A stretch of DNA of 64,000 nucleotides from a virus (lineage: Duplodnaviria; Heunggongvirae; Uroviricota; Caudoviricetes), in the IMG/VR virus record IMGVR_UViG_2908567220_000002, positions 1-64,000 of that record. One strand, written 5' to 3'. The position numbers were made by a program, and so were the translations under genes. The stretch's first letter is position 1, and every line of letters begins with the position of its first letter. The notes beneath the pieces are model-generated. The model saw nothing but the letters and a program-made list of their open reading frames with translations, was not told the DNA's origin and searched no databases. Of the stretch, positions 2,209 through 25,671 are shown piece by piece.

Positions 2209-2748
2209 TTATGACGTGACTCTAGGTTCGTCCGGCCAGACTGTCGCGTTGTAGCTCGCCTCATCCGTCACACCACTTAAATCCAGCGCCTGAAGCGCCT
2301 TTATGTAAGCCAGCCATTCCGTCAGGCTTTCCTTGTCATCATTAGTGATGATGTCCAGCAGAAGCTCTGACTGCCAGAGGCTGATTCTCTCCTTCGCATC
2401 CGATATCAATGCGCTTCGTTGCGATTCCGCCCTTGCCTGCCACTCCGCTGCCGTCAGCGTCCGCGCAACCACACTCTCCCCGTCAAACACCCAATTGCCG
2501 TCGATATCCGCACCGTCCGGCAGCGACTCAACCTCAGCAACACTCAGACTGACAGGACAAAGTGCCGACACATCGGTCGAAATACTGCGCACGATACCGT
2601 CACTGTCGTACGCAACTTTGTATGTATCCTCTGCAAACTGCGTCTGGCATTCATACCAGTCCTGACCATCCTCGCTGATGAGATATGTCGCCCACGCCAC
2701 GGGCGGGTTTTCCGGGGTGTATTGCCTGAAATTTTTGATGTTTATCAT
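2209..2748 (-). CDS. Tail fibre assembly protein (Tfa-like chaperone)
   Basis: 179 aa, directly downstream of the tail fibre gene; C-terminal pattern WLAYIKALQALD...VWPDEP typical of Tfa proteins. Confidence 0.75.
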   Translation of the reverse strand: MINIKNFRQYTPENPPVAWATYLISEDGQDWYECQTQFAEDTYKVAYDSDGIVRSISTDVSALCPVSLSVAEVESLPDGADIDGNWVFDGESVVARTLTAAEWQARAESQRSALISDAKERISLWQSELLLDIITNDDKESLTEWLAYIKALQALDLSGVTDEASYNATVWPDEPRVTS

Positions 2749-2760
2749 TAGTGCTCTCCT

Positions 2761-3552
2761 TTACAGTGATACCGCATTTATCCATGTACCGTTTATGCAG
2801 TACTGAATCTGCCTGTAATAAATTCCGCCAATGTTATCTGCTGAATTTGATCCCGTTTCCTGAACAATAATCCCTGTGAGCACATTTCCGTAGGAGAGAT
2901 TACTGGTCCACGACACCTCGTTACCGGAAGGCGTGTATGAGCTGGCGCTACTCAGTCTCACTGCCGACACACCGCCCGTCGTCAGCAGGTAACGGGCATC
3001 GAGCGTACTCAGATTCTGGGTTGCCACATCTCCCAGCCCCAGATTTGTTCTGGCCCCTGACGCAGTGGTGGCCCCGGTACCACCACTGCTCACCGGCAAT
3101 GTGCCGGTCACGCCCGGCGTGACATTCGCACTGCCATCAAAAGTAACTGCACCCGTACTGCCAAGATTTACCTGGATTGTCCGGCCCGTTTTCAGTTTTG
3201 TGGCTGTATCCGCATTGCCCGTCAGATCGCCAGTGAGGGATGTCCCTGTTATCGCGCCGCCGGTGATTTCCACCGCATCACTGTTCTGACCGGCCATCGT
3301 ACCCAGAGCACCCATGGCGGTGTTCACATTCTCCTGTGAGGCAAAGTATTTCGATAACGCCTGCCAGAGTTGTGTGTCATCAGTCGGATCCAGCGTCAGC
3401 CCCGCACTCTCCACAACCTTCACCAGCTCCCGCTGAATGACGTTAAACCACGCCGCCAGCAACGGCGTAGGCTTCAGCCCTGTGGCAGGCGCGCCGTCAG
3501 TAAACTCGTCGTTTTCATCAACATACGGTGTGATATCAGATATTTTCTTCAC
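2761..3552 (-). CDS. Tail fibre protein (short, Gly/Thr-rich distal fibre)
   Basis: 263 aa, Gly/Thr/Ser-rich, NLGLG-type motif; sits between the baseplate genes and tfa. Confidence 0.65.
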   Translation of the reverse strand: MKKISDITPYVDENDEFTDGAPATGLKPTPLLAAWFNVIQRELVKVVESAGLTLDPTDDTQLWQALSKYFASQENVNTAMGALGTMAGQNSDAVEITGGAITGTSLTGDLTGNADTATKLKTGRTIQVNLGSTGAVTFDGSANVTPGVTGTLPVSSGGTGATTASGARTNLGLGDVATQNLSTLDARYLLTTGGVSAVRLSSASSYTPSGNEVSWTSNLSYGNVLTGIIVQETGSNSADNIGGIYYRQIQYCINGTWINAVSL

Positions 3553-3598
3553 GCATATCTCCTTACCCCGCCACCGGAGCGGCGGGATCCTCCTGTTA

Positions 3599-22864: not shown

Positions 22865-22872
22865 CGCTCACC

Positions 22873-23124
22873 TCAGTAACGCACGCTCAGAGACCTTCTC
22901 GTCCTTATCCCCAGCGCCCGCTGGAGCGTCGCGATCAGCGCCAGCAAATCAGCACTGCTGGCCTGTGAATAAGTCACGGTGCGCGTGCCGTCTCCCTGTG
23001 CATAGGAGAAACTCACGCCACGCCGCCCTGAAAGCAGCTCAATATAGGCCGCCTGAGCTTCATTCAGTGCCGCCTTCAGTTGTTCTTTTGACATTCCGGC
23101 AAACACGCCGGGGGGATTCATCAT
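22873..23124 (-). CDS. Head-tail joining protein (lambda gpW-like)
   Basis: 83 aa between terminase large subunit and portal. Confidence 0.65.
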   Translation of the reverse strand: MMNPPGVFAGMSKEQLKAALNEAQAAYIELLSGRRGVSFSYAQGDGTRTVTYSQASSADLLALIATLQRALGIRTRRSLSVRY

Positions 23125-25100
23125 CGTCTCACTCCTGCAAGCCTCATATGCAGCGGTATTTTCTTACGGGGTGTCTCCGGTGCTTTTGCGCCCGGCATAC
23201 TTAAACTGATTTTTTCTTCCGGCTGCGCGGGAGGCGGCTCCATGAATGACAGATCCTGCGCCGCCCGTTCAGCCAGACGGTTCAGTTTCAGACCGTGATG
23301 CAGCAGCCCCTTCAGGGCCGCGTAACCGTACACCATGCAGTCCAGCGCCTCATTCGCCCGTCCGGCAGACAGCTCCCAGACACGGTACACCTGCCCGCCG
23401 TTCTCCTTACGCACCAGACGCTCAGAGAGCAGCTGACTGAAATAATGCAAATCCAGAAACGACGGAAAATGGATACAGCCTGCGGCAGGCGCGCCTGCCG
23501 GATCCGGCTCAATATGGAGCCGGTGCCTGATGTCGTCCTTCGCGGAGTTCACCCCCAGAATGACGGGGCGAAAGGATTTCCGGTTGCGGGAAGAAACACT
23601 GCGCGTCGGCCAGACGGGATTACGTTTGCCGCCAGCGGCGGACTCACCTTTTGTCGCCCAGATACGACGCCCGATACGCGCCTTCGAGAACTCATACACT
23701 TTGTTGGTGTGATGACCGCCCGAGTCATGGCAGACCGCCGAGAGCGTCAGCCCGAAACCGTCAGCCCGCCGCCAGACCTGCTTCAGATACGCATCAAGGC
23801 GCTCCCACGGCTCTTCTGTTTCAAGGTCACCAAAAATCACGTCATGCGCAATCACCCAGCATTCTTCGTTCATGCCCCAGCCGAGAACGGTGATTTCGAA
23901 GCGGTCATCCTGTGTATCCACCCCGGCGGTGAGCAGGAGCACGCCATACGGCACCTCCGCCCCCCAGACCTCAACGCGGGCGATCAGCCGCTGCTCACTC
24001 ATCGCAAACTCGCCTGCATCCTCGTAAGGCTCGCCCAGCGTGGTATTGATGAATGTCTGGCGCATCAGCGGATCGTCCTTCACCCTCAGCCATTCGGCGA
24101 CCAGATTCGGCCAGGAGGCATTTGAGTGCGGGCTGTAGCCCGTCCAGATATGAAAACCGGCATGCCCCCTGAATGGTGCACCGGCACGCCATTCGCCTTT
24201 TGCCAGCATCCCGGGCAGTTCACTGTGCACAATCACACAGCCGTGGTGACGGCACAGATAGTAAGCGGTCTCCGGCAGCCCGTTACCTTCGCTGTCCTTT
24301 TCCCACTTGATGCCGTAAGGGGTGCTTTTGCTGCCCCACTCCAGCACCTGATATTCACCGCAGTGAGGACAGGGCACGAAGTAGCGGCGCTGATCGCTTT
24401 CCAGCCAGGCTTTTTCAATACGGCTCACGCCTTTCACGGTTGGCGTTGAGCCGAGAACAATCTTGCGGTTCCAGAAGGTTTCGGAACGTTTTGTTCCCAG
24501 CGCAATCTGATCCCCTTCGGACCCTGCGCCCCCTGCCGGATACCCGTCCACCTCATCAAAAAGGATGATGCGGCATGTGATACGGCGAAAACCGCCGGGG
24601 GAGTTGGCCCCGACCAGCGTGAGGTTTGCGCCGTTGGAAAAGGTTTTGCGAAGAATGGTCTGGTTGCTGTTTTTTGCCTTCGGGTCGCCGCTGATGGCTG
24701 CCAGCACCGGCGTGTCGCGCAGCATCGGGGCAATTTCGGTTTTACTGTAGTCTTCGGCATCCTCCACCCTCGGCTGAACCACCAGGATGGGGGACGGATC
24801 ATGTGCCAGGTAATAGCCCACCACATGATCAAGAATTTTCGTGTATCCCACACGGGCTGATTTCATCACCGACACATACGTGACTGACGGGTCGGTGATG
24901 GCATCCATCATGCCGTCCTGATAGGGATAGGAGCGGAATTTCCCCGTCTGGGCACTGGTCTCACGGGACAGTACAGCGAAGGTGTTGGCCCACTGACTTA
25001 AGGATAATGGAGGCGGAGGCGCAAGATAACGCGGACACGAAAGCAGCGCATCCTCAAACTGTATCTCCGTGGGTTTCGCGCCTGTCAAATGCAAGTTCAT
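23121..25100 (-). CDS. Terminase large subunit (lambda gpA family)
   Basis: 659 aa; follows the Nu1-like gene with overlap. Confidence 0.8.
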   Translation of the reverse strand: MNLHLTGAKPTEIQFEDALLSCPRYLAPPPPLSLSQWANTFAVLSRETSAQTGKFRSYPYQDGMMDAITDPSVTYVSVMKSARVGYTKILDHVVGYYLAHDPSPILVVQPRVEDAEDYSKTEIAPMLRDTPVLAAISGDPKAKNSNQTILRKTFSNGANLTLVGANSPGGFRRITCRIILFDEVDGYPAGGAGSEGDQIALGTKRSETFWNRKIVLGSTPTVKGVSRIEKAWLESDQRRYFVPCPHCGEYQVLEWGSKSTPYGIKWEKDSEGNGLPETAYYLCRHHGCVIVHSELPGMLAKGEWRAGAPFRGHAGFHIWTGYSPHSNASWPNLVAEWLRVKDDPLMRQTFINTTLGEPYEDAGEFAMSEQRLIARVEVWGAEVPYGVLLLTAGVDTQDDRFEITVLGWGMNEECWVIAHDVIFGDLETEEPWERLDAYLKQVWRRADGFGLTLSAVCHDSGGHHTNKVYEFSKARIGRRIWATKGESAAGGKRNPVWPTRSVSSRNRKSFRPVILGVNSAKDDIRHRLHIEPDPAGAPAAGCIHFPSFLDLHYFSQLLSERLVRKENGGQVYRVWELSAGRANEALDCMVYGYAALKGLLHHGLKLNRLAERAAQDLSFMEPPPAQPEEKISLSMPGAKAPETPRKKIPLHMRLAGVRR

Positions 25101-25671
25101 TCAGCGCCTCGTAAATCAGTTCCTGCAATGCCGCCGTGAATCCCTGATCGTCTGTCATCCCCGCCAGCGCCCGCAGACGGGGACCATGTTCCGGCGCAAG
25201 GGCAACAAGGCGCGTCCTCACCCGGGTATACTCCGCCCCGACCCGCTCAATGATGGGTTTCCAGGGAAGCAGTGTTCCTTTCTTTTCGTCATACTCGAGT
25301 TTTGCCAGCAGCGCGAAGTAGTTCTCTTTCATGGTTCTGGCTTCATCGAGCGTCATCATGGCTCCGTGGCTGGCAATGAACTGTTCGACCCGTGCTTCTT
25401 TCGATACATCAGAGGAGTCATCGTACAGGGCAATGCTGTTACCTTCGTTGTTACCCGGAGTGTTACCTTCGGATGTTACCCTGTTACCTAAAGTGTTACC
25501 TTTTTGCTCATTTTTTATTCGGGTAACAGTTTTCCGGTAACGCCGGATCCGCTCGTTTGAGGCATCAACATCGATGTCCTCACCGTCCAGAACCAGCCAG
25601 CCACGGGCCTTCCACGCCGTTACCGTCTTGCGACTGACACCGTGAAGTTTTGCGAATTCCGCCTGATTCAT
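25054..25671 (-). CDS. Terminase small subunit (lambda Nu1-like)
   Basis: 205 aa; N-terminal HTH-like MNQAEFAKLHGVSRKTVTAWKARGW resembles the Nu1 N-terminus. Confidence 0.7.
   Translation of the reverse strand: MNQAEFAKLHGVSRKTVTAWKARGWLVLDGEDIDVDASNERIRRYRKTVTRIKNEQKGNTLGNRVTSEGNTPGNNEGNSIALYDDSSDVSKEARVEQFIASHGAMMTLDEARTMKENYFALLAKLEYDEKKGTLLPWKPIIERVGAEYTRVRTRLVALAPEHGPRLRALAGMTDDQGFTAALQELIYEALNELAFDRRETHGDTV

Follow-up and report, generated by a model that had tools for sequence, protein, structure and literature searches.

A lambda-type head and a Mu-type contractile tail in the late module of an Escherichia coli prophage related to phages phiNP and BZS1

Genes and sites of the late module

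The subject of this analysis is a set of virion genes at positions 2209-25671 of a 64,000-nucleotide (nt) stretch of tailed-virus DNA (IMG/VR record IMGVR_UViG_2908567220_000002, positions 1 to 64,000; hereafter ‘the window’), which form the late module of a prophage of Escherichia coli. The minus strand of this interval holds 24 consecutive, uninterrupted open reading frames (ORFs), which Pfam and PHROGs profiles assign to lambda-type packaging and head functions followed by a Mu-type contractile tail; every gene of the module has a profile match except orf187 and the tail fibre. A first-pass annotation of the letters had named these genes on this strand and in this order, and all of them were found; the profile search that it had proposed returned sheath, tube and baseplate families. 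In E. coli DS26-1 the corresponding stretch is 99.9% identical, and the 24 ORFs are non-pseudogene RefSeq genes there. Identities given below are of amino acids, and the two phages most often used for comparison are Citrobacter phage phiNP (OR565852, a C. rodentium prophage) and Serratia phage vB_SspM_BZS1 (MT843275; hereafter BZS1), which ranked top for both sheath and capsid in a protein search of a phage collection.

The packaging end of the module contains the following genes and sites:

25733-25744, minus strand: predicted cosN, GCATTGCGCGAG, a likely 12-nt cohesive-end site, 10 of its 12 bases being those of the BZS1 overhang
25672-25700, minus strand: GGTAACA in three copies, in the interval from cosN to terS; candidate cosB analogue at which the small terminase would bind
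25054-25671, minus strand: small terminase (TerS); phrog_57, E 1e-27; 59% identical to phiNP and 57% to BZS1
23121-25100, minus strand: large terminase (TerL) of lambda gpA type; GpA_ATPase E 1e-76, GpA_nuclease E 1e-81

The 5' cohesive end of BZS1 has been determined experimentally as the 12-nt sequence GCATTGCGCGCC (PMC7556043). The cosN region of the window aligns with BZS1 cosL and with phiNP, the spacing from cosN to the terS ATG is 73 nt in the window and 74 nt in BZS1, and the GCATTGCGCG core of the cos site of this lineage, which lies about 74 nt upstream of terS, is found in the window and is predicted to be cut there. The GGTAACA repeats are likewise conserved in place in an alignment of the window, phiNP and BZS1, and may be the analogue of cosB to which the terminase binds. 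TerL is 35% identical to lambda A by BLAST and 73-74% identical to its counterparts in phiNP and BZS1, in agreement with half of the earlier description of the terminase as ‘Nu1/A-like’; the other half did not stand, because TerS has no Pfam Nu1 family match (a sub-threshold HTH_28 hit only) and no BLAST similarity to lambda Nu1, and is Nu1-like only by its position and its cos site. In the mechanism that we propose, TerS and the gpA-type TerL would cut concatemers at cos, approximately 73 nt upstream of terS, and the DNA would be packed with 12-nt cohesive ends.

The head genes follow in the order of lambda:

22873-23124, minus strand: gpW head-completion adaptor; Pfam gpW E 1e-12, phrog_75 (adaptor Ad1)
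21224-22864, minus strand: portal of the lambda gpB family; Phage_portal_2 E 5e-99; 30% identical to lambda B
20367-21227, minus strand: S49 prohead protease (the N-terminal part of gpC); Peptidase_S49 E 7e-26; 36% identical to lambda C residues 5-293
19796-20374, minus strand: acidic protein of 192 amino acids (orf192), a probable separate scaffold analogous to Nu3; phrog_6382, and phrog_17040 over residues 85-144
19398-19799, minus strand: head decoration protein of gpD type; Pfam HDPD E 2e-17, phrog_49
18287-19342, minus strand: major capsid protein of gpE type; Phage_cap_E E 8e-58; 28% identical to lambda E and 65% to phiNP
18100-18336, minus strand: small DUF7210 protein in the position of lambda FI; Pfam DUF7210 E 6e-8 (gene start in RefSeq, 18285)
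17784-18119, minus strand: FII-type head closure (head-tail attachment) protein; Phage_attach E 3e-17, phrog_82 (head closure Hc1)

The families of the gpA terminase, gpW, gpB portal, S49 gpC, gpD, gpE and FII all score above the Pfam gathering thresholds; no ORF of the module matched FI, either in Pfam or by BLAST against the lambda protein. The S49 protease is short (286 amino acids, compared to 439 for lambda gpC), so that protease and scaffold appear to be separate genes. On the basis of its position, where the Nu3 part of lambda C would be, orf192 is probably that scaffold; it contains a long poly-Asp/Glu tract, and its C-terminal motif resembles lambda Nu3 at a level that is not significant (E 7.6). 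DNA would thus enter a lambda-type head in which the portal is of gpB type, the capsid of gpE type and the decoration of gpD type, and which is built with an S49 protease and a scaffold that has its own gene; the gpW and FII homologues would then close the head.

Between FII and the first gene of the tail lies a protein for which neither Pfam nor sequence searches of the PDB (made with orf187, DUF2635 and FII) returned anything useful:

17224-17787, minus strand: orf187, tail terminator (head-tail junction protein), assigned by its position between FII and gp38 and by an AlphaFold2 model searched with Foldseek

A full HMMER search placed orf187 in a family of 206 representative clusters. An earlier model, built from an alignment of 9 sequences, was unusable (predicted local distance difference test score, pLDDT, of 51), whereas an alignment of 75 sequences drawn from the representative search gave a model with a pLDDT of 92. 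Searched against the PDB, that model found lambda gpU (E 2e-6), the terminator of siphophage R4C, T5 p142, the pyocin R2 collar and the Mu terminator (9khy), and according to the model orf187 has a gpU-like tail-terminator fold. The idea that orf187 might be a diverged Mu gp37 was dropped, because profile comparison related its family neither to Mu gp37 nor to SfV orf9 (the hhalign probability for the latter was 0.5%); those two proteins fall in two further Pfam families, that of SfV orf9 being PF23840. The orf187 protein is 44-45% identical to phiNP tsp_2 and to BZS1 p11, and the latter has been detected in virions by mass spectrometry (PMC7556043). Capping of the tail by this gpU-fold terminator, followed by docking of the terminator ring on the FII ring, would join head and tail.

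The remaining genes encode the contractile tail:

16974-17264, minus strand: DUF2635 protein, homologue of Mu gp38 and first gene of the Mu-type tail block; Pfam DUF2635 E 2e-14; 47% identical to Mu gp38
15475-16977, minus strand: tail sheath; Phage_sheath_1 and 1C domains, phrog_165 E 3e-191; 38% identical to Mu L, 42% to SfV and 61% to phiNP
15070-15435, minus strand: tail tube; Pfam Tail_tube E 3e-33
14645-15067, minus strand: tail assembly chaperone (14789-15067; Phage_TAC_7) with a predicted -1 frameshift extension
12695-14659, minus strand: tape measure with a C-terminal SLT lytic transglycosylase domain (E 3e-19, residues 469-576) and matches to tape-measure PHROGs
11278-12702, minus strand: homologue of Mu gp43 (DNA circulation protein or baseplate hub); DNA_circ_N E 2e-28; 30% identical to Mu gp43
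10193-11281, minus strand: Mu gp44 (gpP) baseplate hub; GpP-like_1st, Gp44-like_2nd and GpP_4th domains
9615-10196, minus strand: Mu gp45 spike or baseplate assembly protein; Phage_Mu_Gp45 E 3e-15
9176-9613, minus strand: Mu gp46 wedge subunit; Pfam GP46 E 2e-34
8020-9243, minus strand: Mu gp47 (Baseplate_J) wedge protein; Baseplate_J E 8e-56 (gene start in RefSeq, 9174)
3599-8023, minus strand: extended gp48 baseplate protein of 1474 amino acids; Phage_Mu_Gp48 E 1e-20, Big_2, LRR_5 E 4e-37
2761-3552, minus strand: tail fibre, its N-terminal 66 or so residues 44-47% identical to the fibres of phiNP and BZS1
2209-2748, minus strand: tail fibre assembly protein (Tfa); Caudo_TAP E 5e-25; 32% identical to Mu U over 186 residues

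The slippery sequences GGGTTTT and TTTTTTC lie at 14801-14810, six codons ahead of the chaperone stop, and the -1 frame is open for approximately 55 codons, as far as the start of the tape measure. Slippery heptamers followed by an open -1 frame are the usual frameshift arrangement of tail chaperones in tailed phages, and this frame would be used in the same way here. The fibre has no Pfam match; its N-terminus resembles those of Mu S and SfV orf21. The Mu-type tail would be assembled separately from the head, from a gp43-gp48 baseplate, the SLT tape measure, the frameshifted chaperone, the tube, the sheath and gp38.

Lineage, integration and age of the head/tail combination

All the genes from TerS to gp47 have homologues in the same arrangement in phiNP and in BZS1 (29-74% identity by tblastn), and both of these phages are myoviruses by electron microscopy (PMC6456863, PMC7556043). 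The BZS1 virion has an icosahedral head of approximately 70 nm and a contractile tail of approximately 120 nm, and thirteen structural proteins have been identified in it; phiNP is a spontaneously released myovirus (PMC7556043 and PMC6456863, respectively). The conserved block may extend beyond the 24 genes, to a protein of unknown function (226 amino acids, 26432-27112, minus strand) encoded just upstream of cos, which is 57% identical to a protein of phiNP that is annotated as similar to BZS1 p72.

In DS26-1 the module belongs to a prophage of approximately 50 kb that sits in the 3' end of ompW, beside the trp operon. Its backbone is that of a Rac-type lambdoid prophage, with two holins, an M15 endolysin, two tRNA genes, a DNA methylase, a Q-type antiterminator, RusA, DUF968, YdaS/YdaT-like genes together with repressor/Cro-like HTH genes, a RecE-like exonuclease, an excisionase and a lambda-type integrase. 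In the window the integrase is followed (50190-52137) by a stretch of the ompW 3' end, approximately 120 nt long, and then by a second prophage, an arrangement that indicates two prophages in tandem at the ompW attachment site; DS26-1 carries only the first, followed by an intact ompW. The adjoining prophage that had been described as bearing a classical lambda tail is indeed there: the minus strand of 52138-64000 encodes H, M, L, K, I, J, Lom and Stf.

We conclude, with a probability of about 0.85, that the 24 genes are the complete late (virion-assembly) module of a lambdoid prophage that is temperate and of Rac type, is inserted in the 3' end of ompW and belongs to the phiNP/BZS1 lineage of temperate myoviruses. 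This conclusion is supported directly by gene family membership, by synteny with two phages whose virions have been characterised, by conservation of the cos site and by the fold of the terminator; we infer that this copy is inducible. Several observations count against it. The module is rare: among 5426 complete E. coli genomes, only 8 contain most of it. Decay does happen in the lineage, as the frameshifted large terminase of one relative shows, and a megablast comparison of the module with 50,697 phage records matched no isolated phage at the DNA level, the relatives having come up in protein searches rather than DNA searches. The small terminase has no Nu1 domain recognisable by Pfam, and the C-terminal part of the fibre and the repeat array of gp48 have no characterised homologue (which leaves their part in host recognition conjectural).

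In order to place the combination of head and tail, each protein of the module was compared by pairwise BLAST with the proteins of lambda, Mu and SfV. The terminase, portal, protease and capsid match lambda only (A 35%, B 30%, C 36%, E 28%), with nothing in Mu or SfV, while the proteins from DUF2635 to Tfa, the tape measure excepted, match Mu (21-47%) or SfV (23-49%), mostly both, with nothing in lambda; the union of lambda-type packaging and head genes with a Mu-type tail was therefore correctly recognised in the first-pass annotation. A scan of one genome per bacterial species with a sheath alignment yielded 61 loci (L015-L075), 53 of them long enough to judge. Lambda-type head genes, an orf187-type junction protein and a Mu-type tail occur together in 36 of these 53, in Klebsiella, Raoultella, Kluyvera, Citrobacter, Salmonella, Edwardsiella, Hafnia, Erwinia, Serratia, Morganella, Providencia, Photorhabdus, Xenorhabdus, Pseudomonas bohemica, Variovorax and a Burkholderiales metagenome-assembled genome, among others. 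The other 17 have sheaths of at most 48% identity, and 16 of them carry an SfV-type terminase and portal and an SfV orf9-type terminator.

The family of the terminator thus tracks the type of head (orf187-type with lambda-type heads, SfV orf9-type with HK97-type heads, with the exception of one lambda-head locus, L045, in which no orf187 homologue was detected), and the gp38 (DUF2635) gene is common to both groups. This pattern would place the boundary of exchange between orf187 and gp38, just upstream of the latter. The terminator would travel with the head cassette, since it must dock on the head-completion ring, and a viable point for exchanging heads and tails would lie between terminator and gp38.

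The BLAST division between lambda and Mu/SfV might be read as the trace of a recent, E. coli-specific recombination event that joined a head block resembling that of lambda to a tail block resembling those of Mu and SfV, as the word ‘chimeric’ in the first-pass annotation had hinted; lambdoid prophages do recombine freely, and the early region of this one is a patchwork that matches thousands of E. coli genomes. However, the head-terminator-tail block is syntenic in phiNP, BZS1 and the 36 species-representative genomes, and is spread over more than a dozen enterobacterial genera in addition to P. bohemica, Variovorax and the Burkholderiales genome, so that the combination is conserved as one block over many genera. 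Divergence is also alike on both sides of the junction (approximately 60-75% identity in the head and 50-62% in the tail). A recent join is accordingly very improbable. The occurrence of the combination in 36 of 53 loci points to an old and stable lineage, and the G+C content of the block from TerS to gp47, which averages 60% compared to 46% in the early region, points to a single imported unit; by these sequence comparisons the combination is old and coherent, and an E. coli lambdoid backbone acquired it from elsewhere as a unit. Membership in the SfV, SfI, SfII, ST64B and phiP27 group, to which a sheath of 41-42% identity, the same order of tail genes and a lambdoid regulatory backbone might assign the prophage, has less still to recommend it: the terminase, portal, protease and capsid of SfV belong to other Pfam families and have no BLAST match to the head of the module, the PF23840 terminator of SfV faces an orf187 with neither Pfam match nor profile similarity to it, and SfV-type heads and orf9-type terminators occur with sheaths of at most 48% identity and never with a lambda-type head. 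At the level at which it was tested, that membership is refuted.

A different objection is that the element has ceased to give rise to infectious phage, being either a defective remnant or an element of tailocin type that has been domesticated. Its rarity in E. coli and the relative with the frameshifted terminase would fit such a reading, as would the split alpha/beta hydrolase cargo gene at its flank and its position in tandem with another prophage. We nevertheless consider it unlikely, because the head, packaging, tail and lysis genes are all intact, the cos site is conserved, and an integrase and an excisionase are present; a tailocin, moreover, would have no head or terminase genes. The combination of head and tail is real but ordinary, since two isolated phages and numerous bacterial genomes had it before, and the prophage is a new E. 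coli member of a known, if unnamed, lineage; the extended gp48 is its only, and mild, surprise. The value of the analysis lies mainly in tidying the annotation, in that a rare module of E. coli is assigned to the phiNP/BZS1 lineage and its attribution to SfV is corrected; the cos site, the frameshift and the terminator are predicted for the module.

The repeat extension of gp48, and cargo genes

The leucine-rich repeat (LRR) baseplate protein that had been singled out earlier is present, and consists of a gp48 N-domain, Ig-like (Big_2) domains and approximately 35 BspA-type repeats of 27 residues each (LRR_5; consensus FYGCtgLttvgdgvFagCtsvTTFxxx). The array contains a tandem segmental duplication of 15 repeats, or 1215 nt (3849-5090 and 5064-6305). 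Plain gp48 proteins of 180-225 amino acids are found in Mu, SfV, phiNP and BZS1, and the LRR extension occurs in none of the 53 loci from other species; E. coli relatives have gp48 lengths of approximately 285, 388 and 547-681 amino acids, besides LRR versions, and the gp48 of strain 2015C-4136CT1 has 372 residues. When the full protein was used as a query for homologues, the repeats swamped the search and essentially one partial E. coli cluster was recovered, whereas the N-terminal 494 residues were informative. Many database copies of the LRR protein are partial, and a literature search for LRR baseplate proteins gave nothing relevant.

The closest parallel is found in the P2-like Klebsiella phage ST16-OXA48phi5.4 (Reipivirus), in which ‘tail protein I’ (gpI), the positional equivalent of gp48, is extended to 1008 amino acids by the same Big_2 and LRR_5 region (33% identical over residues 295-1460), with a fibre gene two genes downstream. 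The baseplate of that phage is of P2 type rather than Mu type, its N-terminal domain is dissimilar and its array is shorter. Together, the gp48 length variants, the Klebsiella copy and the duplication of the repeat unit suggest that the extension behaves as a swappable and expandable cassette on the rim of the baseplate. Host recognition would be carried out by the fibre with its Tfa chaperone, and probably also by this extension. That the 1474-residue gp48 might be a baseplate-displayed adhesin, providing a second and rapidly evolving receptor specificity, is put forward tentatively, as a possibility rather than an expectation. If it is correct, the baseplates of contractile tails would have a portable module for receptor binding in the BspA-type LRR array; the extended gp48 is in any event an uncharacterised candidate of possible interest for the engineering of phage host range.

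The prophage also carries several accessory genes. Two tRNA genes, tRNA-Gly(TCC) and tRNA-Thr(TGT), lie at 30043-30196 (minus strand), on the part of the late region that separates the methylase from the holins. A two-gene insert of low G+C content (36.5%; 32040-33853, minus strand) stands between the DNA methylase and the Q antiterminator. It encodes an AAA_15 ATPase of 426 amino acids that matches AbiLi (PADLOC, E 1e-25) and a partner of 177 amino acids with no match, and is probably an abortive-infection moron of AbiL type. At 36837-38331 (plus strand) a Ser/Thr kinase of 264 amino acids, similar to the defence kinases PD-T4-6 and Stk2 (E 1e-32), overlaps an ORF of 238 codons, and E. coli annotations of matching regions place the kinase together with a PP2C phosphatase. 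Beside tfa (1179-1969, plus strand) the alpha/beta hydrolase gene is split into two overlapping ORFs in both the window and DS26-1; strain 2015C-4136CT1 has it as a single gene of 262 codons, so that the copy in the window is likely to be a frameshift pseudogene. The second element begins with an S-adenosylmethionine methyltransferase ORF (51232-51900).

Comparison with known phages

The true precedents for the module are phiNP and BZS1, and not SfV. All three elements share the order of virion genes from cos and terS to tfa (including orf187, orf192, DUF7210 and the SLT tape measure), and in all three the backbone is lambdoid and carries Q, RusA, DUF968 and a DNA methylase. The two phages differ from the prophage described here in having no similarity to the module at the DNA level, a plain gp48 of 201-224 amino acids in place of the 1474-residue LRR fusion, and other distal fibre parts, early regions, cargo genes and integration sites (ssrA for phiNP, compared to ompW here).

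Phages of the SfV type, from which this mosaic was said to be known in the first-pass annotation, turned out to share the tail alone. SfV, SfI, SfII, SfIV, ST64B and phiP27 have a contractile tail of Mu type, its genes arranged from gp38 to tfa as they are here, together with a lambdoid temperate backbone, and the tail genes from gp38 to gp48 correspond in order to SfV orf10-orf22 (23-49% identity). Their packaging and head genes, however, are of HK97 type, those of SfV being assigned to TerL_ATPase (PF03354), Phage_portal (PF04860), Peptidase_S78 and Phage_capsid (PF05065), as opposed to PF05876, PF05136, S49 and PF03864, respectively, in the module, and their terminator is of the PF23840 family. 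A comparison of synteny with SfV, Mu and lambda accordingly bore out the tail order as that of Mu and SfV and the head order as that of lambda, but not SfV as a precedent for the whole.

With lambda the module shares the gpA, gpW, gpB, gpC (S49), gpD, gpE and FII families in lambda order (28-36% identity where BLAST detects them) and cos packaging, the 12-nt end having been measured in the relative BZS1. It differs in encoding the scaffold as a separate gene, where that of lambda is nested in C, and in a terminator that shares the fold of gpU but not its sequence. The lambda tail genes Z, V, G, T, H, M, L, K, I and J have no match in the module (by BLAST for those tested, or by Pfam), and Z, U and V in particular have none by BLAST.

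With Mu, finally, the module has in common, in matching order and at 21-47% identity, gp38, L, M, a chaperone of gp41 type, gp43-gp48, the N-terminal part of S, and U. The 24 virion proteins have no BLAST match among the head and packaging proteins tested (Mu gp27-gp37), and no transposase family was found among the ORFs profiled; unlike a Muvirus, the prophage has a lambda-type integrase, Q and a cos site in its backbone. Its tape measure, which has an SLT domain, is not similar to Mu gp42 by BLAST, a terminator of another family stands in place of gp37, and the module has neither a G-segment nor an invertase. The Mu-type tail cassette thus occurs with at least three head cassettes: that of Mu itself, the HK97-type and the lambda-type.

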